Source: Stellaceae bacterium
GTDB lineage: Bacteria; Pseudomonadota; Alphaproteobacteria; ATCC43930; CGMCC-115725
Reading direction: 5' to 3'
Length of the DNA stretch: 64,000 nucleotides
Assembly (NCBI GenBank): GCA_036490955.1
Contig: DASXCX010000080.1
Span: 4,906 to 68,905, forward strand
Under the pieces are notes generated by a model that saw nothing but the letters and a program-made list of their open reading frames with translations, was not told the origin of the DNA and did not search any database. Shown here one piece after another: positions 6,086-64,000 of this stretch. Each line of letters starts with the position of its first letter. Positions within the stretch are counted from its first letter, which is position 1. Both the position numbers and the translations under genes were made by a program.

Positions 6086-6088
6086 GCG

Positions 6089-16369: not shown

Positions 16370-16467
16370 GCCGCGAAGACGGAACCGTCACGGCTCAGTC
16401 TGGCTTAGATCATGGGAACCGGAGGTCGAGCGGCGCCATTGTCACAAGCCAAAGAGAGAGCGATGTC

Positions 16468-50514: not shown

Positions 50515-51318
50515 CTAGCGTTTTTCTCCCTTATTCTCCTCGCGCTTCGCCCACTGCCATTTCGCCTCCATCTCGTCGAGGCTGGCGCTGCCGGGCTGTT
50601 TGCCGTCGGCGGCGAGCAAGGTCTCGACGCGGCGAAAGCGGCGCTCGAATTTGCGGCAGGCGCGGCGCAGCGCCTGTTCCGGATCGTGCTCGAGCTTGCG
50701 CGCGAGATTGACGACGGCGAAGAGCAGATCGCCTAGCTCGTCCTCGATACGGTCGCTGCTGTCCTCGGCGATCGCCTCGCAAACCTCGGCGATCTCTTCC
50801 TCGATCTTGTCGAAGACCGGATCGACATCGGGCCAGTCGAAGCCGACACGCGCGGCGCGGCGCTGCAGCTTCGCGGCGCGGGTGAGGGCGGGCAGTCCCG
50901 GCCCGATCCCGTCGAGCGCGCTCGCCGCGCCCTTGGCGGCGCGCTCCTTGGCCTTGAGGTCTTCCCAGGCCACGATCGTCGCCGCGGCATTGGCGATCTC
51001 GGCCGCGGCGAAGACATGCGGATGCCGCGTGATCATCTTGTCGCTGATCGCCTTGGCGACATCTTCGAACATAAAGCTGCCGGCTTCCTCGGCCATGCGC
51101 GAATGGAAGACGACCTGAAGCAGCAGATCGCCGAGCTCTTCCTTGAGCGCCGGCACATCGTCGGCCTCGGCGGCTTCGGCGACCTCATAGGCTTCCTCGA
51201 TTGTATAAGGCGCGATAGTTTTGAAGCTCTGCACGACGTCCCAGGGACAGCCGGTTTTGGGGTCGCGCAGCCGCGCCATGATCGTCAGGAGCCGCTGAAG
51301 CTGGGGCGTATCGGTCAT
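50515..51318 (-). CDS. mazG: Nucleoside triphosphate pyrophosphohydrolase MazG
   Basis: This is the C-terminal 267 aa of track ORF 50515..51849, starting MTDTPQLQRLLTIMARLRDPKTGCPWD. It has two EExxE-type MazG repeats (EEAYEVAEA, EEIAEVCEA). Confidence 0.88.
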   Translation of the reverse strand: MTDTPQLQRLLTIMARLRDPKTGCPWDVVQSFKTIAPYTIEEAYEVAEAAEADDVPALKEELGDLLLQVVFHSRMAEEAGSFMFEDVAKAISDKMITRHPHVFAAAEIANAAATIVAWEDLKAKERAAKGAASALDGIGPGLPALTRAAKLQRRAARVGFDWPDVDPVFDKIEEEIAEVCEAIAEDSSDRIEDELGDLLFAVVNLARKLEHDPEQALRRACRKFERRFRRVETLLAADGKQPGSASLDEMEAKWQWAKREENKGEKR

Positions 51319-51400
51319 GCGCGAGCCCCGGAAAATGCCCCGGAAATAAGGGGATCTCGGAGGGTTGGGGATGAATCTGTGCGCCATCGCCGGCACCCAA

Positions 51401-51428
51401 ATATCGCATAATGTATACTCTGGTGAAA
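51401..51428 (+). other. Degenerate dif-like site (left junction)
   Basis: ATATCGCATAA-TGTATA-CTCTGGTGAAA. The XerC-side arm and central hexamer are conserved; the XerD-side arm is degenerate. Confidence 0.6.
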
Positions 51429-51750
51429 CATTCGCGCTAACCTGTTCCGCAGTTGTTCCTAAGGCGATTATTGTAAAAACGGCGGCACTGATCTTAGCGA
51501 GGATCGCGCGATATTGCGCTTTTGCCCCTTCCGATCTTGCGCGCCAAGTATTCAGGTCTAAAAGCGCCGTAGCCGCATCGACACCAGCACGGTTAGCCAG
51601 TTCAATCATCGTGTCATCGTCAGGCCATGCGCGGCGCGTGCGGTATTGGGAAACGCTTTGGCGGATTATGTTTAGAGCATCTGCCAACGCTGTATCCGAC
51701 TTGAAGCCGCAGCGCTCGCGCGCACGGTCAAGGTATTCATCGATCGTCAT
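51403..51750 (-). CDS. Phage repressor-like HTH protein (DUF3693/CI-like); has no stop of its own in the integrated state
   Basis: MTIDEYLDRARERCGFKSDTALADALNIIRQSVSQYRTRRAWPDDDTMIELANRAGVDAATALLDL..., then a hydrophobic segment. GGAGAG lies 8 nt before ATG 51750. The frame runs across the left dif-like core into mazG, so the 3' coordinate is set at the core. Confidence 0.6.
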
Positions 51751-51954
51751 GTAGGGCGCTCTCCAAAGCGGTAGAGCTGCGATCATGCTCTCGAAAAAAG
51801 CTGTTGACAATAGACACACTCCATAGGCTCCGCTGTCAGCCACAGACACTAGCGATGGTGTCTCGGTCCTTCACCGGATCGCGGGCGCGCCGAACTCCAA
51901 GGCGGTACGCGCCCGCTTCCGGTGAGCGAGGCGAGTTTTCCGCAGCGGGCTTCC

Positions 51955-52055
51955 TGGCAGGTTCACCCGTTGCGGCTTTGGAGGCGAGCGATCGCCAGTG
52001 AGGCGGCGAAGAGGGGAAACCTTCCTCGCCGCCTCCAAATCCCCTGAACCTGCCA
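51955..52055. repeat. Nested/alternative inverted repeats (~100 nt structured element)
   Basis: Outer stem TGGCAGGTTCA (51955..51965) / TGAACCTGCCA (52045..52055). Inner stem TTTGGAGGCG (51977..51986) / CGCCTCCAAA (52030..52039). This competes with GAGGCGGCGA (52000..52009) / TCGCCGCCTC (52026..52035). Confidence 0.6.
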
Positions 52056-52104
52056 ACGGCGCGCGCGCAGCGCGCGACCGGCGAACGGTGAAGGAAGGTG
52101 GACG

Positions 52105-52512
52105 ATGAACATCGGTCGTTTAGTCCGAGCGCAAGAGCCCGGCGAATTTATCGGCAACATCACGACGCGAACGCTCGCCTTGCAGCTCGTCATGCGGCAA
52201 AGCATCCGCTGGAAATCGGCGGATAAAAATTCGCCGAAGTATGAACTCTTCGAGCGATCGCGGCATGGCGAAGTGGCGATCGGCATGGCGTGGGAAAAGA
52301 CGGCGCATACAGTCGACAATCTCGGCCGAAAATATCTCTCGCTGTTGCTCGATGATCCATCCTTCGATCAGCAGCTGCAATGCAGCGGCTTCGAGACCGA
52401 GGACGGCTACGACATCGTGTGGCAGCGGCCGCGCGACGATCGCAACTTTCGCCCTGATCCTGGGCGCGCGGCTGATCGACGCGACGATCCGGAAGTGTTC
52501 AATCGCGGGTGA
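52105..52512 (+). CDS. DUF736-domain protein
   Basis: 135 aa. IGNITTRTLALQLVM...KNSPKYELF...EVAIGMAWEK...YLSLLLDDPSF...YDIVWQRPR is the DUF736 pattern known from alphaproteobacterial plasmids and ICEs. GAAGGAAGG RBS. Confidence 0.7.
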   Translation: MNIGRLVRAQEPGEFIGNITTRTLALQLVMRQSIRWKSADKNSPKYELFERSRHGEVAIGMAWEKTAHTVDNLGRKYLSLLLDDPSFDQQLQCSGFETEDGYDIVWQRPRDDRNFRPDPGRAADRRDDPEVFNRG

Positions 52513-52844
52513 TGCGCGAGCTGGCGAATCATCGCGCGTGGCGCATCGGGATGCACGGTTACAAAATCACCGTGCATCCCGTGCACGCGTTCCCGTTCAT
52601 CGAGCAACGCGATATCGAATTGCAGCAGCGAGGCGCGGACTGGTGGTGCGTCGCGGTGTGGCGCTTAGAAAGCGCGGAGCCCATCACACTCGATCACTGG
52701 GCGCGTCTCGATCGCGAGCGTCTCGCGTTGCAGCTCTACGATTGCGCATATCTTCGCGAGCATCATCCGATCGTAGACATGCGAGCCGTTTACGACCATT
52801 GCGCGACGTGGATGGAACACGAAATCAGGAGACGCGCCGCATGA
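52509..52844 (+). CDS. Hypothetical protein (element early region)
   Basis: 111 aa. GTGA/ATG overlap with the upstream gene. Confidence 0.5.
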   Translation: MMRELANHRAWRIGMHGYKITVHPVHAFPFIEQRDIELQQRGADWWCVAVWRLESAEPITLDHWARLDRERLALQLYDCAYLREHHPIVDMRAVYDHCATWMEHEIRRRAA

Positions 52845-52915
52845 TTTGGCCGATTGTAAGCGTCGCGGTGATTTTTTCCTTCAGGTTTCGTCGGCGCGCG
52901 TGGTGGGACGAATGA
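52841..52915 (+). CDS. 24-aa hydrophobic micro-ORF
   Basis: MIWPIVSVAVIFSFRFRRRAWWDE. ATGA overlaps at both ends; AGGAG lies 9 nt upstream. Confidence 0.35.
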   Translation: MIWPIVSVAVIFSFRFRRRAWWDE

Positions 52916-53094
52916 TTTGGCTCATGCATCGCTGGCACGCGCGGCGCGAGATGCGTCGTGCATGGCGTCATATCAAGGATAGCGCGCGGCAGATGCGCCA
53001 GGATCGCGAAGTCGTCGCCGATCTCCATCTCAGCGAGGCGATCACGGCGTTGCGCTATGCTCGCTCCTGGCTTTACGAGGGACATTCTCGCTAG
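52912..53094 (+). CDS. Hypothetical 60-aa basic protein
   Basis: MIWLMHRWHARREMRRAW... ATGA-coupled to the micro-ORF. Confidence 0.45.
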   Translation: MIWLMHRWHARREMRRAWRHIKDSARQMRQDREVVADLHLSEAITALRYARSWLYEGHSR

Positions 53095-53098
53095 CGAC

Positions 53099-54223
53099 AT
53101 GTCGAGCGCCCTTGTCAATATCGCACACAGCTTTTCCGCTTCGCCCGATATCGTCAATATCGCACACAGCTTTTCCGCTTCGCCCGATATCGAAGGCAGG
53201 CGGCGGCTGTTTCAGCTGCACGCAACGGCGGCGCGGATCATGCGAGACGAGCGCGTCGCGACATGCGGCCGGCGCTCGATCTTCAGCCATGTCGACGTGC
53301 GTTGCGGCGATCGCGCATCCTTCGGTGGCGTCGAGACGTGCGGCTCGGTTTGGATGTGCCCGAAATGCGCCTCGCGCATCGCTGAGGGCCGTCGCCAAGA
53401 AATCCGCGCGCTCGCCGATCAGCATTGCCGCTCGGGTGGCGCGATCTACATGGCCGCGTTCACCATCCCGCATCAAGCGTGGGACAGGCTCGACGTGCGA
53501 GATGCTGAGGGAAAGCGAACCGATCAAGGATTGTTAGGCGCAATTTCGAAGTCTTGGTCAAAGATGATCAGCGGAAGAGCATGGCAACGTGAGTACGAAA
53601 AAGCGGGATGCAGCGGCGGCGTTAGAGCGTTGGAAGTTACTCACGGTCGCAATGGTTGGCATCCCCACCTGCACGCTGTTTTTTTTCTTTCATCGGACGA
53701 TGCCGCTGCTGAGTTCGGAGTTTTTCTTTTCGAGCGTTGGGCTCGCATCGTTCAACGTATGGGTTTCGGAGATTGCAATGCGAATATATGGCGCTTTGAG
53801 AAAGCCGCGAACTACGACGCGGTGACCGACTACGTCGTCAAAGGCAATTTCGATATGGAGTTGACGCGCGGGCACATGAAGCTCGCGAAGGGCGGCGGTC
53901 GATCGCCCTGGCAGCTCCTCGCCGATGCTCGCTTAGGCGACAATCGCGCGGTGTGGCTCTTCCGCGAATTCGCGACGGCGTTCAAGGGTGCGCGCCAATT
54001 GACTTGGTTCGGCGATCTTCGTGAGGCGCGTAGCGATCTAGACATTGCGAGCGCCGAGGAATCATCGCCGATCATCGGGCGCATTTCACGTCGCGCATTC
54101 TCGACAATCCATGCGCGCGGCGTTGCGTGCGACGTGCTGGAAGCGGCCGAGCGTGGCGGTTGGGGCGCGGTGTTGGAATTTTTAGCAGGGGAGGGGATAT
54201 GTCCCGATCTCAAATCGACGTAG
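53099..54223 (+). CDS. HUH rolling-circle replication initiator (Rep_1/pC194-phage type)
   Basis: Track ORF 52958..54223 trimmed to MSSALVN (ATG 53099). Zn-finger-like CGSVWMCPKC, HUH motif WHPHLHAVFF, and Tyr motif DYVVKG. Confidence 0.75.
   Translation: MSSALVNIAHSFSASPDIVNIAHSFSASPDIEGRRRLFQLHATAARIMRDERVATCGRRSIFSHVDVRCGDRASFGGVETCGSVWMCPKCASRIAEGRRQEIRALADQHCRSGGAIYMAAFTIPHQAWDRLDVRDAEGKRTDQGLLGAISKSWSKMISGRAWQREYEKAGCSGGVRALEVTHGRNGWHPHLHAVFFLSSDDAAAEFGVFLFERWARIVQRMGFGDCNANIWRFEKAANYDAVTDYVVKGNFDMELTRGHMKLAKGGGRSPWQLLADARLGDNRAVWLFREFATAFKGARQLTWFGDLREARSDLDIASAEESSPIIGRISRRAFSTIHARGVACDVLEAAERGGWGAVLEFLAGEGICPDLKST
53114..53191 (+). repeat. Perfect 39-bp tandem duplication (2 copies) in the 5' end of rep
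   Basis: GTCAATATCGCACACAGCTTTTCCGCTTCGCCCGATATC at 53114..53152 and 53153..53191. It is in frame (VNIAHSFSASPDI x2). The junction creates the hairpin CGATAT-cgtca-ATATCG. Confidence 0.95.
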
Positions 54224-54390
54224 TGATGCGTCACGTCGACAAACTCAAAGCAAGCGCATCGTTGACCGCGCTCGCGCCGAATGCGGCTCCGTTCGCGGAA
54301 GCGATCATGGCGCAGCTCGTCGACCTGGAAAATCGTATTGACGCGCTTCAGCGCGCCGTCGACGCGATGCGCGGAGCGCCGATCCTGTGA
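54199..54390 (+). CDS. Hypothetical 63-aa helical protein
   Basis: MSRSQIDVVMRHVDKLK... GGAGGGG lies immediately upstream of ATG 54199. Confidence 0.5.
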   Translation: MSRSQIDVVMRHVDKLKASASLTALAPNAAPFAEAIMAQLVDLENRIDALQRAVDAMRGAPIL

Positions 54391-54773
54391 AACAAGGCCC
54401 GCGCAACGTCGCGCTCGGCGCGATCTCTTGTCCGCTGTGTCACGAAGATATGCGCGTGACGACGAACAAGGAAGGTTATCCCACGGCGTATTGCGCGCCG
54501 TGTCGCTGTCAGCTCCAAGTCCGCGCGCCGCAAGGCTCGCTGCTACTTCTCGGAAAGGTTCACGAATGGCAAGGCAACGAAGCAATCGCCGAAATGGTCG
54601 ACGCAGCAGACGCGCGCGTGATGTACCAGAAGCTCCCCGCGTTGAAACCCCCGAAGCTGCCGCCTCACTTGAGCTCGACGAAGCCGGCTTCCTCAAAGAC
54701 GACAACGCCGGAACCGGAGAAGCCGAAGGATCAGCCGGCAAAGGGCCGCACGTTTCTGGGTCTGCCGCTCTAG
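54387..54773 (+). CDS. Zinc-ribbon protein with Pro/Lys-rich tail
   Basis: CPLC...CAPC four-Cys ribbon. GTG start overlaps the upstream stop. Confidence 0.5.
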   Translation: MKQGPRNVALGAISCPLCHEDMRVTTNKEGYPTAYCAPCRCQLQVRAPQGSLLLLGKVHEWQGNEAIAEMVDAADARVMYQKLPALKPPKLPPHLSSTKPASSKTTTPEPEKPKDQPAKGRTFLGLPL

Positions 54774-54778
54774 AGGAC

Positions 54779-55174
54779 ATGATTGCCGAAGCCGCGGCGT
54801 CGCCGCTCGGCAATAGCGGCGCGCCGCCGATCGACGCGCCGAAGGTCGAGCCTGCGCTGACGGCGGTCAACTTTCCCGGCATCTGCATGGGCGCTTCGGT
54901 GCTCATGTCGCTGGGCCTGAGCAAAATCGGTTTCGGCGCGCTGACCGAGAAGGAAGGCGAGGCGCTGACCAATTCCATGTTGCGCGTGGTGACGGCATTC
55001 GAGATTTCCATCGGCGATCCGCGCACGGCGGCGGTCCTCGATCTCGGCGGCACGCTCACCGCGATCATGTTGCCGCGTATCATGGACGACATGGCGCGGC
55101 GCAAAGTGCGCAACGCTTCGCCGACGCAAGCGGCGGCGAACGATCGCGCGGCCGATGAGCCTGCATCAGCCTGA
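54779..55174 (+). CDS. Hypothetical membrane protein
   Basis: This is the C-terminal part of track ORF 54281..55174, from MIAEAAASPL. It has hydrophobic segments FPGICMGASVLMSLGL and AAVLDLGGTLTAIML. Confidence 0.5.
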   Translation: MIAEAAASPLGNSGAPPIDAPKVEPALTAVNFPGICMGASVLMSLGLSKIGFGALTEKEGEALTNSMLRVVTAFEISIGDPRTAAVLDLGGTLTAIMLPRIMDDMARRKVRNASPTQAAANDRAADEPASA

Positions 55175-55751
55175 CAATCGGCTTTATCTCGGCATGGGCG
55201 GGAGCGGCAAAACGTGGCTCGCGCTGCGTCATGCCGATGCCTTCGACCGCGTCGTGTACGTTCGGCCGGAAGATCGTGAGCGCGCGCCCTATCCCGAGAC
55301 GCGCGATCGCATCGCCCTATGCCGCGCGATGCAGCAGCCGCGCTTTGCGGTGACGTTCACGACCGACGCCAACCCGGAGCTCTGGGAATGGGCGAACCGG
55401 GCAGCGATGGCGCGCGGTGACTGTCTCGTGATTTGGGAAGAGGCGTCATCGCTCGGCGACGGCAAGCCGCGCCTCCCAACCCATGCTCATGCGCTATGGA
55501 TGCGCGGCCGTCATGCGCGCTGCCGGGTGTTTGCCTGTTCGCAGCGGCCGTCGCGTATCTCACGCGATTGTACGGCGAACTTGAGCCGCGCCGTGATCTT
55601 CGCGACGACGGAGCCGAACGACCTAAAATTCTACCGGGACATGATCGGCGATCGCGCGGCGATCGAGCGCATCCGCTCTCTAGCGAGGTATGAGGCGGTC
55701 GATTTCAACCCTTTGGGAGGCTGGACGGTCAAGAAATCGCCCTTCGACTAG
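55155..55751 (+). CDS. FtsK/HerA-superfamily P-loop ATPase (candidate genome-packaging ATPase)
   Basis: 198 aa with no TM segment. Walker A GMGGSGKT, Walker B CLVIWEEAS, and the RGRH...SQRPSRIS motif typical of the HerA/FtsK clade. Confidence 0.7.
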   Translation: MSLHQPDNRLYLGMGGSGKTWLALRHADAFDRVVYVRPEDRERAPYPETRDRIALCRAMQQPRFAVTFTTDANPELWEWANRAAMARGDCLVIWEEASSLGDGKPRLPTHAHALWMRGRHARCRVFACSQRPSRISRDCTANLSRAVIFATTEPNDLKFYRDMIGDRAAIERIRSLARYEAVDFNPLGGWTVKKSPFD

Positions 55752-55840
55752 CTCGCTAGCGTAACGGCTTTTTCCCCAATGGCATGAAAAATGTCGTAGC
55801 GATGGTCAGGGCGATTTTGCCTCGAACCCCGGAGGGGAAC

Positions 55841-55927
55841 ATGTCTGTTCGGTCCATTGCCATGACCACGGTCGCGCTCTTCGTCGCGATCTACATCTAC
55901 GACAAGGTCAAGGGCTCGCTGCCCTGA
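55841..55927 (+). CDS. 28-aa single-TM peptide
   Basis: Below the ORF-track cut-off. MSVRSIAMTTVALFVAIYIYDKVKGSLP, with GGAGGGG RBS. Confidence 0.45.
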   Translation: MSVRSIAMTTVALFVAIYIYDKVKGSLP

Positions 55928-55973
55928 TCGGCCGTTAAGCGTCCCGCCTTAAGAACACAGAGGACTTCGCAAA

Positions 55974-57050
55974 ATGGCGATCAGCAATCAGTTCAAGCTG
56001 GTAAACCGAATTGGCACCTTCGCGCAGACGGTCGGCCGTCAGCCGCTCAATCTCGACGTAGGCGCGCCGCTCACCGGCATCGATATCCGGTTGCGTTACA
56101 CCGTCGCGACGGGAGCGACCGCGCCGACAGGCGTTCAGTACGGCGCGGTGTTTCAACTCGCGCAGCTCATCCAGCGCATGGAGCTGGTGGTCAATGGCGA
56201 GGACACCGTCATGTCGGTGCAGCCGTGGCTTTACATCGCGCGTTTCGCACAAGAGCGTGGCGGCCTTTTCCCGCGCGGCTTCGAGACGCCGATCAACATG
56301 GCGGCGAACCAGAACACGAACGTGGACGTCCATATCCCGATCCACTTCGATCTCATTCGCGGTCGCAAGCGCAATGACTGCGCGGTCGACCTTCGCGGCA
56401 TCCGCGCGGCGCAGCTCTATCTGACGTTCGGCGGCGCGGCCAATCTCTTTGGCGTGCCCGGCGCGACGGTGGCGATCTCGAATATCATCGTCGATATCGA
56501 GGCCACCTACATCGAGCAAGTGCCCGCGCGCGACAAGAACGGCAAGCCGATCCTCTTCGCGGTGCGCCAGCTCGACGAGCTAACGCTGCCGCTTCCGGGA
56601 GCGAACAATCAGACGACGCTCGACATCGATCAGCGGACGGGCGTCAACCTGATTTCGCTGGGCATGTTCTTTGATACGCTCATCGGCGGCGTGCATGGTG
56701 GCGACGATACCGGTCTCATCAACGGCGCGACGTTCCAGGGCGATTTGAAGCTGCGCAGCGGCGGCAGCTACTTCGGCGTGACGCAAGCGGCCTTCGTCAA
56801 GGCGCGTGCGCGCGACGAAATGCGCTTGATCAACGCCGGGCAGGCGCTCGACGTGGCGTCGATGCTCAATCCGGAGTTCCCCGGCTTCTTCTTCTGGGAT
56901 CAGCGTTACGACGGCAAATTGTCGACCGGCATTCCGACGGGTGCGCTGGACGCCAATTTGCAGCTCTTGCTCAACCAGAATTTCAACACGGGCAACACGA
57001 CGCTTTTCGTTCAACGCGAAAGCGTGCGTCCGCTGAACGTCGGTATCTAA
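55974..57050 (+). CDS. Candidate major capsid protein (beta-rich, jelly-roll type suspected)
   Basis: 358 aa with no TM segment, rich in beta-prone residues. Lies directly after the ATPase and is followed by a strong hairpin. This is assigned from position and composition, not from a recognised motif. Confidence 0.5.
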   Translation: MAISNQFKLVNRIGTFAQTVGRQPLNLDVGAPLTGIDIRLRYTVATGATAPTGVQYGAVFQLAQLIQRMELVVNGEDTVMSVQPWLYIARFAQERGGLFPRGFETPINMAANQNTNVDVHIPIHFDLIRGRKRNDCAVDLRGIRAAQLYLTFGGAANLFGVPGATVAISNIIVDIEATYIEQVPARDKNGKPILFAVRQLDELTLPLPGANNQTTLDIDQRTGVNLISLGMFFDTLIGGVHGGDDTGLINGATFQGDLKLRSGGSYFGVTQAAFVKARARDEMRLINAGQALDVASMLNPEFPGFFFWDQRYDGKLSTGIPTGALDANLQLLLNQNFNTGNTTLFVQRESVRPLNVGI

Positions 57051-57060
57051 TACTCGCGGA

Positions 57061-57099
57061 GGCGGCGCGCCGAGGCCGGTCTATAGGCAGCGCGCCGCC
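57061..57099 (+). terminator. Stem-loop after the capsid-candidate gene (possible attenuating terminator)
   Basis: GGCGGCGCGC (57061..57070) / GCGCGCCGCC (57090..57099), a perfect 10-bp stem. There is no T-tract. Confidence 0.35.
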
Positions 57100-57127
57100 C
57101 ATCCTCGATTAACTTCGCGAGGCGAGC

Positions 57128-57454
57128 ATGGACGAAAGCGCGGACACTCTCGACCTGGGCAGCGATCCGCTTGACGTTTTCTCGCAAGGCGGCAGCGGGA
57201 CGGTCGACACGCCGGCCGACAATCCGTCGAACGGCATCGATCTAAATTCGCTTCTCGGCAATCTGACGGGCGCGGCGACGACGGCTTTCACGGCGGCGCA
57301 GAACAGCGCGGCGGCGCAGTCGATCGCGCAAGCGCAGATCGCGGCGAGCGCGGCGAGCCCTGGCAACCCGCTGGCGATCCTCTCGACCGTCAATCCCACC
57401 TATCTGTGGATCGGTGCCGGCATCATCGTCCTCGCGCTGATCCTGAGGAAGTAG
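57128..57454 (+). CDS. Tail-anchored small membrane protein (acidic N-terminus, C-terminal TM plus basic end)
   Basis: MDESADTLDLGSD...YLWIGAGIIVLALILRK. Confidence 0.6.
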   Translation: MDESADTLDLGSDPLDVFSQGGSGTVDTPADNPSNGIDLNSLLGNLTGAATTAFTAAQNSAAAQSIAQAQIAASAASPGNPLAILSTVNPTYLWIGAGIIVLALILRK

Positions 57455-57458
57455 CGCG

Positions 57459-57818
57459 ATGCGTTTTGATGCGCGCATAGGCGAATGGATCGAGCCTAGC
57501 GATCGGCTCTGTTCGCTTTTCGATCTTGGCGCGAAGGTATCCGGCAACACTGACAGCACGGCGACGCAAACGTCGAGCGTGAGCTTCATCCCGAGCGTCA
57601 GCAACAATTCATCGCAGCCGCTGGTGTCGAGCTTTCCGGCCGGGCAGGGCCTGTCGACGCTCAACACAGCCTTGCCCGGCTCCGCGGCGTTCCTGCCGTC
57701 GACCTATGCCGGCTTGACGACGGACACGGCTAGCTCGACCACGCCGTCGCTGACCACGCTGTTGCTGCTGGGCGCGCTCGCGGCCGGCGCATTCTTCCTC
57801 TTGCGGAAGCACCTATGA
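57459..57818 (+). CDS. Tail-anchored small membrane protein
   Basis: ...GQGLSTLNTALPGSA...LLLLGALAAGAFFLLRKHL. Shares the GLSTLNTALP motif with the next gene. Confidence 0.6.
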   Translation: MRFDARIGEWIEPSDRLCSLFDLGAKVSGNTDSTATQTSSVSFIPSVSNNSSQPLVSSFPAGQGLSTLNTALPGSAAFLPSTYAGLTTDTASSTTPSLTTLLLLGALAAGAFFLLRKHL

Positions 57819-58183
57819 GCGCGGGGCTTGTGCCGATCGACGTATCCATCGCCGCGCCGGCGAGCGGGACGTTTGAGAGCGGCGCTGAGAACGATCTTGG
57901 CTTGTCGTTCAATCCGGGCTTTGTCGTCGGTCCGGGCTTCCTGACGCAAAGCGGTACGGCATCGCCTTCGGCGTCGAGCAGCCAGGAAAGCTTCCCGTCG
58001 TCGAGTTCGCCCGCGACGGCGTTGGCCAATCCGCCTGCCGGAATTGGCCTATCGACCCTGAACACCGCGCTGCCGAATTCGGCCGGCGCGCTCGCCACGA
58101 CGTCGACGGCAAGCAGCTCGCTTCTGCTGTGGCTGCTGATCGGCGGCGCGGCAATTCTTCTTTTGAGCGGAGGGAAACGCTGA
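57815..58183 (+). CDS. Tail-anchored small membrane protein (paralogue of 57459..57818)
   Basis: ...GIGLSTLNTALPNSA...LLLWLLIGGAAILLLSGGKR. ATGA overlap with the upstream gene. Confidence 0.6.
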   Translation: MSAGLVPIDVSIAAPASGTFESGAENDLGLSFNPGFVVGPGFLTQSGTASPSASSSQESFPSSSSPATALANPPAGIGLSTLNTALPNSAGALATTSTASSSLLLWLLIGGAAILLLSGGKR

Positions 58184-58317
58184 TGGCGTGGGGCAACTCG
58201 AGCGACAACGGTATCCGGGCGAGCGGCGGAACGATCGGCATGTTGCTGGTCGTCGGCGGCGCGCTGCTGGCGTTGTGGATGATTCATCCGAAATTCTCCG
58301 CGAGCCTCGGGCGGTGA
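58183..58317 (+). CDS. 44-aa single-TM protein
   Basis: MAWGNSSDNGIRASGGTIGMLLVVGGALLALWMIHPKF..., overlapping the upstream stop. Confidence 0.45.
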   Translation: MAWGNSSDNGIRASGGTIGMLLVVGGALLALWMIHPKFSASLGR

Positions 58318-58623
58318 ATGTGCGGCGGCAGCTCGTCATCGCAAACATCGGCGACGTCGACCAACACGACGGCGGTCACGAGTGTCAGCAACGTTACAAC
58401 CAATGTGCCGATCACCGTCGACACGTCGGATTTGGCGGACGCGTTGAAGGCGCTCGCGGGTGCGGACGAGGTGGGCGCGGTCGTGTCGGGCGCGGCGCAA
58501 GTGCAAAGCGCGAAGATCGCCGCGAGCGCCGGGCCTTCATGGTCGACGATCATCACGATCGGCGGCGCGTTGATCGGTATCGCGATCGCGCTGCATCTCA
58601 TCAAGGTAAAGGGCTTTAAATGA
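58318..58623 (+). CDS. Tail-anchored small membrane protein (Ser/Thr-rich N-terminus)
   Basis: MCGGSSSSQTSATS...WSTIITIGGALIGIAIALHLIKVKGFK. Confidence 0.55.
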   Translation: MCGGSSSSQTSATSTNTTAVTSVSNVTTNVPITVDTSDLADALKALAGADEVGAVVSGAAQVQSAKIAASAGPSWSTIITIGGALIGIAIALHLIKVKGFK

Positions 58624-59453
58624 CGACGCGCAATCGCCCGAATTACCAGATCTATTATCTGCCGCTGACGAACGCCGGGCAGATGGACGTGCCGGCGATC
58701 GGCACGCGCGTTGCGATGCTCGGGTGCTTCACCGGCGCGACGGTGATTTTCAGCGGCGGCGCTCAGCAGCTCGCGGGCGGTACGCCAACAGCGGGCACGG
58801 TCAATGTCCAGGTTGGCAAGACGCTGGGCGACGGCATTCCCTTCGCGCCGGGCAACAAGCTTCGCGTCGATAACAAATTTGATTTTCTGCGTTTCAGTTG
58901 GTCGGCGCAGGCCGGTGTCATCGCGATCATGGCTGTCAGCGACGACGCGGAAGGCAACGGCATCGAATTCGACGCGCCGCCTGCCGTCGCGCTCGGCAAC
59001 TTCACGCTGCAACAAGGCGGCAACGTCGCTCAGGTCGATTTCAACGGCGCGCTACAGGTGCAGCTCCGCGACGTGTTCGGCGGCTTGATCGGCGAGGGTG
59101 ATCCGTCGAGCGGCGGCCTGCGCGTCGACAATTCAACGCGCATCGGCGCATCGTCTGTCTCGCTCAATGGGCCGGCGGCAGGCGCGACGACGATCCTGGC
59201 GGCAGGATCAAACACAAACGGCGTCACGGTGAAGGCCGGCTTCACTGTGCTCGGCGGCTCAGCGGTTTTCTTGCAGCTCTGTAGTGGCGCGACGCCGCCC
59301 ACGTCGCTGACAAGCAATCCGTCACTGCTCACGGGTTTCAGCACCTTCGGCGTGCTTCCCGAGGATATCTATTTGCCGCCAGGGCAAGGGCTATATGCGT
59401 GGGAAGGCTCGGCCGGCGCTGGCGGCATGTTCGGAACCTACACGGTGCATTGA
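58620..59453 (+). CDS. Candidate vertex/spike (receptor-binding) protein
   Basis: 277 aa, Gly/Ala/Val/Thr-rich, beta-prone, no TM segment. Assigned from position after the membrane-protein cluster. Confidence 0.4.
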   Translation: MTTRNRPNYQIYYLPLTNAGQMDVPAIGTRVAMLGCFTGATVIFSGGAQQLAGGTPTAGTVNVQVGKTLGDGIPFAPGNKLRVDNKFDFLRFSWSAQAGVIAIMAVSDDAEGNGIEFDAPPAVALGNFTLQQGGNVAQVDFNGALQVQLRDVFGGLIGEGDPSSGGLRVDNSTRIGASSVSLNGPAAGATTILAAGSNTNGVTVKAGFTVLGGSAVFLQLCSGATPPTSLTSNPSLLTGFSTFGVLPEDIYLPPGQGLYAWEGSAGAGGMFGTYTVH

Positions 59454-59455
59454 TC

Positions 59456-59686
59456 ATGACAGTCGAGATTGGTCGGAACGTCACCAATTTTGCGAACGGG
59501 TCGAGCGTCGTCGCTGTGACGACGGCAACGCTACCCGACGAAACCAAGCCCGTGAGCCAGGACAACGCGCCGAGCGCCGTTGCCACGGCTTACACGATCA
59601 CGGCGGGACCGGACGGCGCGATGCCGCCCGGCTATCCCGATGCATTTCCCGGCGCGACGGTGAGCGACAATGATCAAACCGGCTGA
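59456..59686 (+). CDS. Hypothetical 76-aa protein
   Basis: Trimmed to MTVEIGRNVTNF (ATG 59456). Confidence 0.45.
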   Translation: MTVEIGRNVTNFANGSSVVAVTTATLPDETKPVSQDNAPSAVATAYTITAGPDGAMPPGYPDAFPGATVSDNDQTG

Positions 59687-60095
59687 TCTTCTGCCGATCA
59701 TTCAATGCGAAGCGCCCGATTTCGATCCGGCGCTGATCCTCGGCTTCGTGCAGACCGAAAGCAGCTTCAACGAGCGCGCGTTTCGCATCGATCGCAACGG
59801 CGGCAGCTACGGCTTGATGCAGCTCGATCTAAGTACCGCGCGCGATCGCGGCTATCCCGGCGATGCCTTCGGTCTTTACGATCCGAAAACCAATATCCAT
59901 TACGGCGTGGCGCAGCTCCGCTGGATCAACCGCTACCTCGCGTCTTATTCGGCGGTCGGCCTGCAATCGATGATCGCCGCATACAACGAAGGCGTGGGCC
60001 GCGTCGTCAAGGGCAATCCCGATCCGCGTTACGTCGCCTCGGTGATCGCGTCGCGCGATCGTTTCCGCGCGATCCTGCATGAAGGCGTGGCATGA
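59670..60095 (+). CDS. Lytic transglycosylase (SLT domain)
   Basis: 141 aa. Catalytic QTESSFN, GLMQL and AYNEG motifs. Confidence 0.8.
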   Translation: MIKPADLLPIIQCEAPDFDPALILGFVQTESSFNERAFRIDRNGGSYGLMQLDLSTARDRGYPGDAFGLYDPKTNIHYGVAQLRWINRYLASYSAVGLQSMIAAYNEGVGRVVKGNPDPRYVASVIASRDRFRAILHEGVA

Positions 60096-60256
60096 CCGTC
60101 ATCGATGCGGATTACGTCCTGAAGCAGCTAGAGGCTCACCAAGCCGAATGCGCGCGGCGCTGGTGGTCCGTGATGAGTTTAGCGATCGGCAATCTGGTGG
60201 TGCTGGTCGCGGGTATGGCGACAATCATCGTCGACCTTCTTAGCCACCATCATTGA
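60092..60256 (+). CDS. 54-aa holin-like single-TM protein
   Basis: Below the track cut-off. MTVIDADYVLKQLEAHQAECARRWWSVMSLAIGNLVVLVAGMATIIVDLLSHHH. ATGA overlap with the SLT gene. Confidence 0.45.
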   Translation: MTVIDADYVLKQLEAHQAECARRWWSVMSLAIGNLVVLVAGMATIIVDLLSHHH

Positions 60257-60266
60257 GGAGAAAAGC

Positions 60267-60452
60267 ATGAACGCTTCGCTACTCGCATTGCTCGCCCTAC
60301 TGGTCGAGAATGCGCCGAAGATCACGGCCGATGCTGTGAAAACCTATGCCGATATCGCCCATGGCGAGGGTGGTCTCGGTAAAGTGCAAACCGCGCTGGC
60401 CGATCTGTCGAAGACGGTGAGCGACGCGGTTGCGGCTCAGCAGGCCGCGTAA
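60267..60452 (+). CDS. Hypothetical 61-aa protein
   Basis: MNASLLALLALLVENAPK... AGGAGAA RBS. Confidence 0.45.
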   Translation: MNASLLALLALLVENAPKITADAVKTYADIAHGEGGLGKVQTALADLSKTVSDAVAAQQAA

Positions 60453-60453
60453 C

Positions 60454-60606
60454 ATGGCCGACGAAACCGAGGAAAAGAAATCGCCGCTCGCCGCGCGCAT
60501 TGCGGCGCTGGAGGACGGGTTCCAAAAGTTGGAGAAGCTGGTGATGAGCCACCACGTCAAATTCAACTGGCCGGAAGAGGCGACCGATGGCGAAGCGAAA
60601 GCGTAA
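60454..60606 (+). CDS. Hypothetical 50-aa charged helical protein
   Basis: Below the track cut-off. MADETEEKKSPLAARIAALEDGFQKLEKLVMSHH... Confidence 0.35.
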   Translation: MADETEEKKSPLAARIAALEDGFQKLEKLVMSHHVKFNWPEEATDGEAKA

Positions 60607-60661
60607 GCGTCGGATGCCGAAGCGCGGCAAAAACGGCCGTTTCAAAAAGCGGCGGTGATCG

Positions 60662-60895
60662 ATGGACGGTGACAGCTCGTCGCAATTCTCGACGGATGCC
60701 CTTGGCAATCTGATCGGCGAAGCGCCGGGCTCACCGTTCATTACCAATTCCGGCGACGCGATCGGCGCGGGCGGTTCGGTGCTCAGCACCGGCGCGGGTA
60801 GCTTGCTCGGCGACCTTGTGCCTTCGCTTCCCTGGTACGTCTGGGTGGCGCTCGGCGTCTTAGGCTTCGTTCTCTTGCGCGATGTGGTGAAGTGA
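60662..60895 (+). CDS. Tail-anchored small membrane protein (MDGD class)
   Basis: MDGDSSSQFS...LPWYVWVALGVLGFVLLRDVVK. Confidence 0.55.
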   Translation: MDGDSSSQFSTDALGNLIGEAPGSPFITNSGDAIGAGGSVLSTGAGSLLGDLVPSLPWYVWVALGVLGFVLLRDVVK

Positions 60896-61182
60896 TGGAC
60901 GGCGACACGGTTCAAGCCAACATCGACGATCAGCCCGGCATTTCGGGCGGCTTCAATCCGCTCGCGTTGATCGATTCGACGCTGAGCGACGCGCAGTTGA
61001 ACAATCTCGCCGGCTCGCCGTCGACCGATGCCGCGCTCGCCTCGGGCGACGAAAGCTTGCTTTCGCAGCTCGGCGCGCCGTCGAGCGCGACGGGCCTCGG
61101 CTCGATCTTCGGCAATGTGCCGAGCTGGTTTCTGATCGGCGCTGTCGGGCTGGTGGTCGTGGCCGTGATGATGAGGAAGTAG
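60892..61182 (+). CDS. Tail-anchored small membrane protein (MDGD class)
   Basis: MMDGDTVQANIDD...VPSWFLIGAVGLVVVAVMMRK. ATGA overlap. Confidence 0.55.
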   Translation: MMDGDTVQANIDDQPGISGGFNPLALIDSTLSDAQLNNLAGSPSTDAALASGDESLLSQLGAPSSATGLGSIFGNVPSWFLIGAVGLVVVAVMMRK

Positions 61183-61184
61183 CG

Positions 61185-61448
61185 ATGGACGGCAGCGACA
61201 CGTCACAGCAAAGCGACGACAGCACGCCGCAAGAAATCCTGGGCGTGTTTCAGGGGAGTGTGTCGACGCCGCTGGGGCCGGCCGATGCGTTCTCGACCTT
61301 GAGCGTCGACCCTTCCGTCCTGGCCGGCAACGCGACGGCGGCCGGCTCGGCTTTCGCGAGCGGCGCGCTTGGGCAGCTCACGCCGTTTCTGCCCTATCTC
61401 GCGATCGGCACCGTCGTGCTGGTCGCGGTGATCGCGCTGAAAGGGTGA
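61185..61448 (+). CDS. Tail-anchored small membrane protein (MDGD class)
   Basis: MDGSDTSQQSDDS...LPYLAIGTVVLVAVIALKG. Confidence 0.55.
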   Translation: MDGSDTSQQSDDSTPQEILGVFQGSVSTPLGPADAFSTLSVDPSVLAGNATAAGSAFASGALGQLTPFLPYLAIGTVVLVAVIALKG

Positions 61449-61894
61449 TCCGGCGCGCGACCGCGGCCGATCTTGATCCCGTCGCGGCGATCGCCGTGGC
61501 GCTTTGCGCGACGTTCGGCCCGGACTATCCCAAGCCCGATCGTTCACATATCCTCGCCGAGCTGCGCCGGGTTATCGAGAACGGTTTTATCCTGGTAAGC
61601 GAAAGGTGCGGGACGATCGATGGCGCGCTGGCTTTGGAGCGCGGCCGGTTTTCATTCTCGGCCGAGCCCGTGATCTTCGATCGCGGATTTTACGCGACGG
61701 GCAGCGGGCGGCAGCTCCTCGCCGCAGCGCGCGCGCTCGGCCGAGCGCTGGGCTTGCCGGTCTATGTCACGCGCTTCACGCGCGCGACCGTGCGGCTCGC
61801 GGCCGAGCGTCCATCGACACGAGTTGAGCGGTGGGGTCGGCCAGACCCTGACGCTATAGCAATCAAAAAATATATCACTGACAGCCCGGCTTGA
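61445..61894 (+). CDS. Hypothetical protein, possibly GNAT-fold
   Basis: 149 aa. GTGA overlap with the upstream gene. Only the N-terminal IRRATAADLDPV resembles GNAT N-termini, so the call is weak. Confidence 0.35.
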   Translation: MIRRATAADLDPVAAIAVALCATFGPDYPKPDRSHILAELRRVIENGFILVSERCGTIDGALALERGRFSFSAEPVIFDRGFYATGSGRQLLAAARALGRALGLPVYVTRFTRATVRLAAERPSTRVERWGRPDPDAIAIKKYITDSPA

Positions 61895-61930
61895 CGGGTC
61901 TCGGTCCCGGCCTTCAACGGGGCTGGCGTG

Positions 61931-62077
61931 CTACGGCGATGGAGCGGGCGCGGCCGGGCAATCGGAGTAGTGGAAAAACGGCATCCCGACTTCGTGACAG
62001 GTCGAGCCGTCCGGCGCTTTCTGGACGTTGACGCAACCGGCGAGCGCGAGGCAAAGCAGCAAAAAAAGCGGTTTCAT
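61931..62077 (-). CDS. 48-aa lipoprotein
   Basis: Below the track cut-off. MKPLFLLLCLALAGCVNVQKAPDGSTCHEVGMPFFHYSDCPAAPAPSP with a LAGC lipobox. Its ATG overlaps (ATGA) the stop of the HTH frame upstream. Confidence 0.5.
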   Translation of the reverse strand: MKPLFLLLCLALAGCVNVQKAPDGSTCHEVGMPFFHYSDCPAAPAPSP

Positions 62078-62504
62078 CCGTTCCCCTTTAAGGTGCGACG
62101 GACGATCTTACACACCGTGACCTCGTGAAGGCCAACCCGGAGTCCGATGGCGGCGTTGGAAAGCCCCCTTCGGGCGAGCCGCATGAGATTTCACGGTCGC
62201 GCGAGATGCGCGCCAGGGCCTTCCTCTGGCGCTCTGTGGCGGCTTTGGAGAACCGTATCGCTGGCTTGCCCCAAATCTTTTCATGCCGCGCGGCCTGATC
62301 GGCGCGATCGCGGGCGAGCGCTGCCAGCACGTCATGCGCCTGGGCGACGGCTTTGAGCGCGTCGGCCGGCAGATCGAGCAGGGGCGAGGGCAAAGCCTCC
62401 CCCAAGGTTTTGCGGTGCCGAGGCACACCCCGAAGGGTTGCGGTGAAACCTTGATTGATTGTTAACACGATGCCCAGGGCGCGTAATCGTGAGCGGCCCG
62501 GCAT
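62074..62504 (-). pseudogene. HTH-domain regulator with an apparent -1 frame break near 62185..62190
   Basis: Frame of 62088..62504 reads ...AATERQRKALARISRDREI, then runs into nonsense. The -1 frame continues (N)LMRLARRGLSNAAIGLRVGLHEVTVCKIVRRTLKGNG* (62184..62074), a clear HTH. Confidence 0.4.
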
Positions 62505-62571
62505 GTCATATGCTCGACTTTGAGATAGCCAGCCATCGCTGAGCTGAGGCAGAGCACGACGAAAACCGTTC

Positions 62572-62757
62572 TCAGCATGGCAACGGCATCCGGGCGAGGA
62601 CGCGGGTGACGGCGTCGGCGCCGGCCAGGGCCAGCTCGCGATCGTGGGTCAAGCCGGGCAGCGGACAGCCCGGCACGTCGCTGACGATATCGCCGATCGC
62701 CGCCGCGAGCTGCTCATAGGCGACCATCAGCGTCAGCAGTTTCTCGCGCTGGGTCAT
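62572..62757 (-). CDS. Hypothetical 61-aa protein
   Basis: ATGA-coupled to 62754..62954. Confidence 0.45.
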   Translation of the reverse strand: MTQREKLLTLMVAYEQLAAAIGDIVSDVPGCPLPGLTHDRELALAGADAVTRVLARMPLPC

Positions 62758-62954
62758 GGCGCTATTTTTTTAGCTGCCAATCTGGCGAAGCGAGCGGCTT
62801 CGCGACGCAGTCGCGCAAGCAACGTGGGACAGGGTGGAATGTCGCCATCGGCAATGGCGCGTTCGATTAGTTTAGCGTGTTCTAAAGCTTCAAGCGCTTT
62901 GTCGAGCAGTTCACGAATCGTTTCGAATTCGAAGCCTTCAGGTATAATCGTCAT
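62754..62954 (-). CDS. Hypothetical 66-aa helical protein
   Basis: MTIIPEGFEFETIRELLDKALEALEHAK... Visibly lower GC than its surroundings. Confidence 0.5.
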   Translation of the reverse strand: MTIIPEGFEFETIRELLDKALEALEHAKLIERAIADGDIPPCPTLLARLRREAARFARLAAKKIAP

Positions 62955-63047
62955 GCTGCGGCTCGCGGGGAGAGAGCGCGGGCGCGGTAATTAGATACCG
63001 CGTTGCCTAAGCCTGGGGACCGATCGGTGCGCCGTTTCCGCCGCCGA

Positions 63048-63075
63048 AACGCGCATAATGTATATTATGGGAAAT
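63048..63075 (+). other. dif: dif (XerC/XerD chromosome-dimer resolution site)
   Basis: AACGCGCATAA-TGTATA-TTATGGGAAAT. 23/28 identical to the E. coli dif 28-mer as I recall it, including the whole central hexamer. Intergenic. Confidence 0.75.
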
Positions 63076-63122
63076 AATGGCGCCACGTTTCACTTCACAT
63101 ACCCAACGGCTAGAGGTAGACA

Positions 63123-63950
63123 ATGTACCTCTATAGCGCCGGCCCGGAACCTTGCGAATCGTCGCCTTGGCAGTCCCGCCGGCTTTGGAGCCTATGGGAC
63201 ATGATGAGACTTAAGGCCGGTAGTTTCATGGCCATGATTGTCAACAATCGAAGCATGCAACTCGTGATGCAAGACATGAACGCGACAATAGAACCGGGAG
63301 TTCGCGACGCGGCCAAAAAGTATATCGAGAATATGAAAAACACATGCGATGAGCTCGGGCTGTCTGTTACATCCGATATGACGGTGTATCTGGCTCAAGC
63401 GCGAACGGTCCAGGATTTTCGCAATGCCATGGCCATGATTGAACGGGCGATGCATTCCGAACTGAACCGGCGTGTATTTGTTGCTCCCGATACCGCTTAC
63501 ATCGAATTTTTTGAGAGATCTACCCTGTTTGGTGAAAGCGTTTTCAATGCCTTCCCTTCCGCAGCAGACGATATTTTTGAAGCTGGGAGTTGCTTGGCTC
63601 TTGAACGCAGTACGGCATGCGTCATGCACCTGATGCGCGTTATGGAATGCGGTCTCGCGGCGCTTGCCGGTGCGGTGGCTGTGGAAAAGCAAAACGATTG
63701 GGGAAGCTACTTGCGGGAGATCACTAGGGAACTGACGCAGCGTGCAAAGACATCTGGCGCTCGCTCACCGGATGAACAGTTTTATGCCGAAGCAGCGGCC
63801 AGTTTTGATCACGTGCGCAGGGCGTGGCGTAATCCAACTATGCATGTCGAACACACGTATCCACCGAAGCGGGCCAAAGAGATATTGGAAGCAGTAAAAT
63901 CTTTTATGAATCATCTCTCGACGAAGATTTCCGAGGAACGACGCGCTTGA
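63123..63950 (+). CDS. Hypothetical protein with HEPN-type RNxxxH motif (possible defence/abortive-infection RNase)
   Basis: 275 aa, all-helical by composition, visibly AT-richer than host genes. WRNPTMH lies at 63828..63845 near the C-terminus. The start is uncertain: the inverted repeat TAGAGGTA-N7-TACCTCTA overlaps ATG 63123, and internal Met codons follow. Confidence 0.5.
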   Translation: MYLYSAGPEPCESSPWQSRRLWSLWDMMRLKAGSFMAMIVNNRSMQLVMQDMNATIEPGVRDAAKKYIENMKNTCDELGLSVTSDMTVYLAQARTVQDFRNAMAMIERAMHSELNRRVFVAPDTAYIEFFERSTLFGESVFNAFPSAADDIFEAGSCLALERSTACVMHLMRVMECGLAALAGAVAVEKQNDWGSYLREITRELTQRAKTSGARSPDEQFYAEAAASFDHVRRAWRNPTMHVEHTYPPKRAKEILEAVKSFMNHLSTKISEERRA

Positions 63951-64000
63951 ACGCCTTATCAAAAGCCTCTGGCGACTCATCCGCCTCTAGCTTCTTGGCG

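Follow-up and report, generated by a model that had tools for sequence, protein, structure and literature searches.

A replication-terminus dif site in a Stellaceae bacterium, probably made hybrid by Xer-mediated insertion of a tailless prophage

XerC and XerD bind the two arms of the chromosomal dif site, and resolution of chromosome dimers starts with FtsK-activated XerD (PMC6744903). Mobile elements that exploit these recombinases integrate independently of FtsK and mostly by XerC-first exchange; TLC-phi proceeds XerD-first with its own activator, XafT (DUF3653), and its phage attachment site (attP) combines a defective XerD arm with a central region identical to that of dif (PMC6744903). 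XafT-like elements have been reported in gamma- and betaproteobacteria only (PMC6744903). Capsid phages that integrate at dif are known from Vibrio and the PM2-like group, where a full or one-armed attP lies beside the repressor gene (PMC12715192), and Xer use has been proposed for Jorvik, an alphaproteobacterial phage of Rhodobacter capsulatus (PMC10589892). Insertion sequences (IS) of the ISAjo2 type insert 5 bp from the XerC arm, generate 5-bp duplications and encode a TnsB-like transposase of 441 to 457 amino acids (PMC10132070). Here we describe a dif site that lies between a tailless prophage and an IS1595-family transposon in a 64,000-nucleotide stretch of a Stellaceae contig (the window). 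We conclude, with a probability of about 0.9, that positions 63048 to 63075 of the window are the chromosomal dif at the replication terminus, and that this site is a hybrid formed by Xer-mediated insertion of the prophage.

The site reads AACGCGCATAATGTATATTATGGGAAAT and is intergenic, between one open reading frame (ORF) up to 62954 on the minus strand and another from 63228 on the plus strand. A first-pass annotation, made from the sequence alone, had reported a 28-bp dif-like sequence in a non-coding gap at this position, and we found it exactly there, on the plus strand. The same annotation had counted 23 of 28 matches to E. coli dif, GGTGCGCATAA-TGTATA-TTATGTTAAAT; comparison by hand with GGTGCGCATAATGTATATTATGTTAAAT reproduced the count. 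The mismatches fall at XerC-arm positions 1 to 3, which are the outermost, and at XerD-arm positions 6 and 7 (GG for TT). The further statement that every mismatch lies in the outer arm positions thus holds for the XerC arm, but not for the XerD arm, where the mismatches are mid-arm. Alphaproteobacterial dif sites share CGCATAA-(N)6-TTATGG (Carnoy & Roten 2009, PMC2731167), and TTATGG is the usual start of the XerD arm in this class (PMC2731167, Table 1). Published examples are TTATGGAACTT in Agrobacterium, TTATGGAAAAT in Ehrlichia and Rickettsia and, read in the orientation of the window, TTGTCGCATAA-TGTATA-TTATGGCGACG in Magnetospirillum (PMC2731167, Table 1). The window site has CGCATAA-TGTATA-TTATGG in common with the Magnetospirillum site and its arm cores in common with other alphaproteobacterial sites.

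The 19-bp core GCGCATAATGTATATTATG was found twice in the window at up to 3 mismatches, compared with 0.00 expected from 100 dinucleotide shuffles, which excludes a chance origin of the 28-mer. The second match, at 51404 to 51422, is on the same strand as the first. A JGI contig (L131) that is 99.8% identical (28 mismatches in 14,331 bp) and ends 1.9 kb past the window extends the sequence to the equivalent of 65907. We scanned window and extension for the best match, a check that the first-pass annotation had proposed for the whole replicon. Scored against the clade consensus, the 28-mer at 63048 ranked first (25/28) and that at 51401 second (23/28); apart from the reverse readings of these two sites, all other positions scored below 17/28. 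The site at 63048 is therefore the sole complete dif in the 65.9 kb of window plus extension. The E. coli 28-mer itself, searched at up to 3 mismatches, had no match in the window, as expected with 5 mismatches.

FtsK-orienting polar sequences (KOPS) converge on dif at the terminus, and this polarity is the signature to be expected of such a site. All six copies of the KOPS GGGNAGGG in the window are on the plus strand and aimed at dif, including two inside the prophage (54188 and 57642), and GC skew is positive along the whole length of the window. Right of dif, the 1.9-kb extension contains a single KOPS, on the bottom strand. To place the site among relatives we searched 185,579 species genomes for the exact 24-mer CGCATAATGTATATTATGGGAAAT, consisting of the core and the XerD arm. 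The search returned at least 119 loci, with one copy per contig in at least 119 species. Among the matches listed, almost all were from Alphaproteobacteria (Stella, other Stellaceae, Thalassobaculum, Nisaea, and Rhodospirillales-like and Kiloniellales-like metagenome-assembled genomes), and only the four outer bases of the XerC arm varied (TTAT in 23, ATAT in 21, AAGT in 16, AACG in 7, and others). In dozens of loci mazG is the conserved neighbor on the XerC side.

We then oriented the listed loci by the site and pooled them. The KOPS GGGNAGGG occurred 160 times on the top strand and 12 times on the bottom strand on the XerC (left) side, and 3 and 113 times, respectively, on the XerD (right) side; the corresponding ratios for GGGCAGGG were 88:1 and 2:57. 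Mean GC skew changed from +0.015 left of the site to -0.007 right of it (Mann-Whitney p about 1e-6). In the complete chromosomes of Stella sp. ATCC 35155 and S. vacuolata, dif lies at 46.9% and 53.8% of the record, respectively. The switch in KOPS polarity and skew that the first-pass annotation had predicted for this site is thus seen in the pooled relatives, and its identification of the site as dif at the terminus is supported by the single copy in at least 119 species, by that switch, by the positive skew and 6:0 KOPS of the window and by the mid-chromosome position in the two Stella genomes. In a dozen of the loci (L010, L012, L018, L019, L035, L058, L060, L061, L067, L076, L102, and L114), shared sequence flanks dif on both sides, in the context ATCAACGGGTTGCGATC... 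dif ...GGCGGGCGCATTCGGG; a single record among them has the label "chromosome 2".

The second-ranking site is a hybrid that adjoins mazG, just upstream of this minus-strand gene. Its XerC arm and central region are intact, and its XerD-like arm has 6 of 11 matches. The four closest relatives (L103, L052, L083, and L040; 84 to 89% identity) align with the window from position 48000 and stop at 51428 to 51434, and at the end of the alignment they carry a complete dif, ATATCGCATAA-TGTATA-TTATGGGAAAT. To the right of dif these four genomes have a small cupin-like gene, an MBL-fold gene, tatD, and metG. Since the four relatives carry an intact dif at that point, we conclude that 51429 to 63047 is an insertion into the ancestral dif. 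By this comparison, the left attachment site (attL) reads as the host XerC arm, the core and the XerD-like arm of the element, and the right one (attR) as the XerC arm of the element (AACG CGCATAA), the core and the host XerD arm. The XerC arm at 63048 would accordingly be phage derived and the XerD arm host derived. Among the matches listed, seven other species naturally have an XerC arm of the AACG type, and attR should therefore be a competent dif. It is also the predicted site of dimer resolution after integration, because only attR keeps two good arms. We infer from sequence that XerC and XerD bind and act at the 28-mer, and that this is the site that the cell uses.

Table 1. Features of the dif region in the window and related transposon insertions at dif in other genomes
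Feature	Position	Strand	Evidence or remarks
Host mazG	50515..51318	-	left neighbor of dif in the clade; Pfam MazG on L126-L129 genes
Hybrid attL	51401..51428	+	host XerC arm ATATCGCATAA, central TGTATA, phage XerD-like arm CTCTGGTGAAA
Integrated tailless prophage, body	51429..63047	+	about 71% colinear with free genomes L120 and L124
CI-like helix-turn-helix repressor	51429..51750	-	PF07022 E 5e-7, phrog_638 E 4e-24; terminal gene at attL
DUF736 protein	52105..52512	+	PF05284 E 2e-17; divergent from repressor gene
Rolling-circle Rep	53057..54223	+	phrog_11698 E 1e-69; weak Rep_1 match
P-loop packaging ATPase	55155..55751	+	phrog_2666 E 3e-23; Walker A GMGGSGKT
Double jelly-roll major capsid protein (predicted), 358 aa	55974..57050	+	AlphaFold and Foldseek
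Small, mostly Ala/Gly/Ser-rich putative membrane and virion proteins and 277-aa protein	57128..59453	+	ORF translations
Lytic transglycosylase (SLT)	59670..60095	+	PF01464 E 3e-15
Pair of small leftward genes, 66 and 61 aa, attR terminus	62572..62954	-	ORF calls
Complete dif, attR of the prophage	63048..63075	+	28 bp, 11-6-11 layout
dif XerC arm	63048-63058		AACGCGCATAA
dif central region	63059-63064		TGTATA
dif XerD arm	63065-75		TTATGGGAAAT
Target-site duplication, left copy	63073..63080	+	AATAATGG, 8 bp; last 3 nt of dif and 5 nt
IS1595-family transposon, 2,637 bp	63081..65717 (window part 63081..64000)	+	inverted repeats, transposase
Passenger ORF, 240 aa	63228..63950	+	gene call; weak phrog_32483 match
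Element at same dif offset, L005	L005 219-3016		duplication AATATCAG; cargo DUF3800, then MBL-tatD
Elements at same dif offset, L024 and L138	L024 3530-5977		duplications AATGATTG (L024) and AATTATTG (L138)
Element at same dif offset, L011			duplication AATTTATA
Elements at same dif offset, L078, L134-L137 and L139			last five are further metagenome contigs

The capsid gene of the window is 100% identical to one on a 70.8-kb contig of a Stellaceae metagenome-assembled genome. Homologues of the prophage capsid protein fell into 27 clusters with 44 to 87% identity (the window's own sequence excluded) and lie on several metagenomic contigs of about 10 to 11.5 kb. One of these contigs, L120 (11,575 bp), overlaps itself by 30 nt at its termini, both of which are inside the Rep gene; hence it is a circle of about 11.5 kb. 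Its attP is ATATCGCATAA-TGTATA-GTATTGGGAAG, and that of L124 (11,464 bp) is ATATCGCATAA-TGTATA-AAATCAGGACT. Over the colinear part, the prophage is 68 to 79% identical to both genomes at the nucleotide level. The prophage ends, 62951 to 63064 and 51401 to 52483, map to overlapping segments of L124, 8129 to 8243 and 8227 to 9293, and meet in L124 8227 to 8243, which is the 17-bp XerC arm plus core. This end-joining is direct evidence for an attP made of an XerC arm, the core and a poor XerD arm. The attP of the window prophage is accordingly predicted to be AACGCGCATAA-TGTATA-CTCTGGTGAAA; the circular form is seen in its relatives L120 and L124. A central region identical to that of dif and a defective XerD arm are common to the attP of L120, that of L124, and the one predicted for the window prophage.

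Related prophages occupy dif in other Stellaceae (L126, L127/L128, L130, and L006). The L126 prophage sits between mazG and the MBL-fold gene with attachment sites at 6079 to 6106 and 16632 to 16659, and its attP was probably TTGTCGCATAA-TGTATA-TTATTCGGAAA. In L127/L128 (attachment sites at 5261 to 5288 and 16390 to 16417) it is the XerC arm that is degenerate, AAAACGACCTG-TGTATA-TTATGGGAAAT, and the complete dif is on the mazG side. The layout of L130/L108 is as in the window, and in L006 a capsid gene of 71% identity lies 5.4 kb away from dif. In a single bin, MFD03399.bin.1.6, an empty allele (L085, mazG-dif-MBL) occurs together with an occupied one (L108/L130), with right flanks that are 99.3% identical, and the population is therefore polymorphic for the prophage. 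Sister prophages of this capsid lineage are found in either orientation relative to their structural genes, and in L126 and L127/L128 the stop codon of the MBL-fold gene lies within the XerD arm of dif. Thalassobaculum litoreum DSM 18839 (L096) has a half-site, AACGCGCATAA-TGTATA-TTGCTCAGAGG, 5.4 kb from dif on the XerC side, which is consistent with an Xer-exploiting element of about 5.4 kb in a cultured strain; this strain could serve as an experimental system.

With one copy of the attachment site, the prophage unit is 11,647 bp long and has a GC content of 62.4%, compared with 63.8% for the host. The ATPase gene is directly upstream of the capsid gene and is followed, after the latter, by genes for small hydrophobic, putative membrane proteins, which is the layout of the Tectiliviricetes. 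An AlphaFold model of the 358-aa protein, built with 19 homologues (pLDDT 79, pTM 0.83), matched P3 of PRD1 and PR772, the major capsid protein of STIV, Vp54 of PBCV-1, P2 of PM2, and the capsid proteins of phages Wip1 (Bacillus) and GC1 (Gluconobacter) in Foldseek with a probability of 1.00; E values were about 1e-15 for PRD1/PR772 P3 and the STIV protein and 3e-11 for PM2 P2. Judged by this predicted structure, the 358-aa protein is a double jelly-roll capsid protein. At the sequence level, neither the capsid protein nor the ATPase had a tblastn match at E<=1e-3 among 50,697 deposited phage records, and a scan of IMG/VR with a pattern from the capsid alignment gave no confirmed relative. In these searches, the two proteins showed no sequence similarity to a member of the Corticoviridae, the Autolykiviridae, the Jorvik-like phages, or the Tectiviridae. 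Among phage records, Rep matches only the replication proteins of PMBT54 and B5 (27 to 32% identity).

Downstream of the capsid gene, the ORFs between 57128 and 59453 had no family match, and their order is identical in all relatives; the 277-aa protein may be a spike or vertex protein. The 66-aa and 61-aa genes at the attR terminus had no Pfam or PHROG match even at E<=5, and DUF3653 was absent at this threshold from all three ORFs scanned there; the two genes may be candidates for a role in lysogeny or as Xer accessories. PHROG and PADLOC scans of the small terminal genes and of the transposon cargo gave no informative match. No tyrosine or serine recombinase domain was found with Pfam in the scanned ORFs of at least 77 aa, larger shadow-frame ORFs included. 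The element is thus integrated at dif, bounded by dif and a hybrid site, missing from the empty site in relatives and devoid of a recognizable recombinase of its own, as is typical of integrative mobile elements exploiting Xer. The DUF736 gene beside the repressor gene and attP is kept in most members of the group (L120, L124, L127, and L130). The repressor frame crosses the attachment site, and integration swaps the C terminus of the protein, which in the circular form is 148 aa long. In the integrated form, the repressor ORF continues in frame into mazG without an intervening stop, giving a 444-aa ORF (50515 to 51849, minus strand), and the JGI gene call there predicts a protein of 431 aa that combines the domains Phage_CI_repr and MazG. 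This repressor-mazG fusion is probably a chance read-through across attL.

The right flank of dif is a transposon. Its terminal inverted repeats are imperfect (19 of 23 positions), consisting of CGCCACGTTTCACTTCACATACC, starting at 63081, and the complement of GGCGACGTTACACTTGACATACC, and its 312-aa transposase (L131 15046-15984) has the domains PF12762 (DDE_Tnp_IS1595) and PF12760 (Zn_ribbon_IS1595). The right copy of the 8-bp target duplication is at extended coordinates 65718 to 65725 (on L131); a duplication of 8 bp is a trait of the IS1595 family. Past the transposon, the ancestral flank of L083, L040, and L052 resumes. The transposon carries a second passenger ORF of 157 aa; the 240-aa passenger ORF had no Pfam or PADLOC match. 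We had considered the right flank as a second, XerD-armed Xer element in tandem and rejected this on account of the inverted repeats, the IS1595 transposase, the 8-bp duplication, and the resumed ancestral flank. The first-pass annotation had explained the accessory DNA on both sides by the docking of Xer-exploiting elements at dif. That account fits the left side, where an 11.6-kb prophage without an integrase is found, but not the right side, which is a DDE transposon of the IS1595 family.

The duplication starts at dif position 26, the third-last base, and elements of this type have the same offset in at least nine loci with different flanks (Table 1); the one in L136 is apparently in the opposite orientation. 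The duplications match within a genome and differ between genomes, which argues for independent insertions at a position measured from dif. This suggests that the IS1595-family element targets the edge of dif. A plainer account would be a preference for AT-rich targets in a genome of 64% GC, which would not readily explain the single-base precision. The fixed offset would imply that the site is read via a Xer recombinase or the dif DNA itself. A fixed distance from dif in independent genomes is also seen with the dif hunters of the IS1202 family (ISAjo2 type, PMC10132070). Unlike these, the window element has an IS1595 transposase, an 8-bp duplication and passenger genes, and elements of its type lie on the XerD side, apparently in both orientations.

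We propose the following sequence of events. A circular, tailless virus of about 11.6 kb without an integrase would bring in an attP with a good XerC arm, a center identical to that of the host site and a degenerate XerD arm, and the host Xer recombinases would join it to the ancestral dif, ATATCGCATAA-TGTATA-TTATGGGAAAT. The outcome would be a crippled hybrid attL beside mazG; the distal end of the prophage would hold a fully competent dif, where FtsK moving along KOPS would activate XerC/XerD and chromosome dimers would be resolved. The forms predicted by this scheme are an empty junction, ATATCGCATAATGTATATTATGGGAAAT, and a circular junction, AACGCGCATAATGTATACTCTGGTGAAA. The IS1595-family DDE transposon would have inserted later or independently and left the 28-mer intact.

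We consider integration by the host Xer recombinases highly probable on the sequence evidence, and an integration by a recombinase of the element itself or by homologous recombination, with incidental dif-like flanks, very improbable. In favor of such an origin, many ORFs of the element belong to no recognizable family. Against it, the scanned ORFs, shadow frames included, lack a tyrosine or serine recombinase domain, no protein other than Rep, the capsid protein, and the 277-aa structural protein exceeds 200 aa, the crossover falls inside the 17-bp arm plus core that is common to dif, and each of the independent relatives occupies dif. We are much less certain of the order in which strands are exchanged, where two routes compete for the integration step only. 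In one, XerD would act first with a phage-encoded activator, as with TLC and XafT, and we give this route, with a factor of an unrecognized kind, about an even chance; the activator would most obviously be sought among the unannotated genes beside attP (66, 61, and 138 aa). In the other, entry would be XerC-first and independent of FtsK, as with VGJ and CTX, and the Holliday junction would be resolved by replication or XerD. Most Xer-exploiting mobile elements use XerC-initiated reactions (PMC6744903), attP has an almost perfect XerC arm, and the scanned ORFs encode no DUF3653 protein. Yet the center of attP is identical to dif at 6 of 6 positions in both free genomes, a TLC-type signature that an exchange by XerC alone would not need, the sister phage L127 with the opposite half-site (good XerD arm, degenerate XerC arm) is hard to explain by such an exchange, and unannotated small genes flank attP. 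We hold the XerC-first route to be possible, at rather less than even odds.

The 28-mer might instead be the Xer site of a mobile element or plasmid, located on an episome, with the true chromosomal dif elsewhere. What would fit an episome is the phage-derived XerC arm, the mobile DNA adjoining both sides, and the source of the window, a contig of about 71 kb that was assembled from a metagenome. We nevertheless think this most unlikely: in the 4- to 6-Mb chromosomes of relatives the site is beside mazG and the MBL-TatD-MetG-HolB genes, KOPS converge on it, positions 60000 to 64000 had no plasmid match by megablast, and the ancestral flank picks up again past the transposon. A functionless AT-rich, palindrome-like sequence that arose by chance has the shortness of the site in its favor and nothing else. 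With zero matches expected in shuffles, an exact 24-mer that is single-copy in at least 119 species despite diverged flanks, and KOPS polarity that switches at the site, we give this a negligible probability. Several points do weigh against our reading of the 28-mer as a chromosomal dif made hybrid by a Xer-dependent prophage. The window, which the first-pass annotation took to span the terminus, does include it but barely spans it, with 925 bp to the right of dif, and the switch in skew and KOPS rests on pooled relatives. The Stella dif is opposite the origin only if the two records start near oriC, which is an assumption. Finally, a DUF3653/XafT domain (PF12375), which would account for recombination at an attP with a poor XerD arm, was found in none of the scanned prophage ORFs.

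A dif site, capsid phages that integrate at dif and an IS that targets dif have all been described before; the host family of the phage is new. The analysis fixes the terminus and a dif consensus, NNNNCGCATAA-TGTATA-TTATGGGAAAT, for the Stellaceae, the Thalassobaculaceae, and allied Rhodospirillales-like lineages, for the most part known from metagenomes alone, with mazG-dif-MBL/TatD as the ancestral terminus context. It extends Xer-dependent lysogeny of tailless capsid phages, documented in Vibrio and for a single phage of Rhodobacter, to an alphaproteobacterial family of the soil, adds a phage lineage without a sequence relative among deposited phages, and places XerC-armed and XerD-armed attP variants within one phage group. 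It also suggests that dif targeting by IS extends beyond the one family reported to date. A bolder proposal, which we regard as tentative and on the whole doubtful, is that the Stellaceae dif is exploited both by a phage with a new Xer activation factor and by an IS1595-family transposon that targets XerD-bound dif. If true, there would be a new class of Xer activation factor, perhaps an unannotated protein of 61 to 138 aa next to attP, and a mode of dif hunting via the XerD side, where such hunting has so far been reported only for the unrelated IS1202 family and the XerC side. Current concepts are unchanged by our results, which add well-resolved examples and two testable leads.

Compared with known systems, the site has the 28-bp, 11-6-11 design and the CGCATAA/TTATG inner palindrome of E. 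coli and alphaproteobacterial dif, and its central TGTATA is identical to that of E. coli. Like proteobacterial dif sites in general, it is intergenic, AT-rich within a GC-rich genome, and located where KOPS and GC skew converge; it is the one complete copy in the 65.9 kb covered, and the relatives listed have one per contig. Unlike the site of E. coli, it has an XerD arm, TTATGGGAAAT, of the alphaproteobacterial TTATGG type, and unlike the ancestral dif of its clade it has exchanged its XerC arm for the phage copy, with AACG... in place of ATAT.... In its good XerC arm, dif-identical center, and degenerate XerD arm, the attP resembles TLC-phi-type elements (PMC6744903) and the gonococcal genetic island; unlike the TLC-phi type, the element has no DUF3653 among its scanned ORFs and is a capsid-forming virus, neither a satellite nor an island. 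It differs from Jorvik in lying at the chromosomal dif, the attB of Jorvik being elsewhere, and from the Vibrio/PM2-like group in its Stellaceae host, in a capsid protein of 358 aa that is structurally nearest to the PRD1/STIV type, and in that no P15/XafT homologue was detected among the scanned prophage ORFs of the window. With both the Vibrio/PM2-like phages (PMC12715192) and Jorvik (PMC10589892) it shares a circular, tailless genome in the range of about 9 to 12 kb, a double jelly-roll capsid gene next to the ATPase gene, and the lack of an integrase. As in the Vibrio/PM2-like group, moreover, the attP is dif-like, either full or 17 bp long and one-armed, and lies in a leftward operon beside the repressor gene, XerC-armed and XerD-armed variants both occur, and one of the two junctions restores dif.

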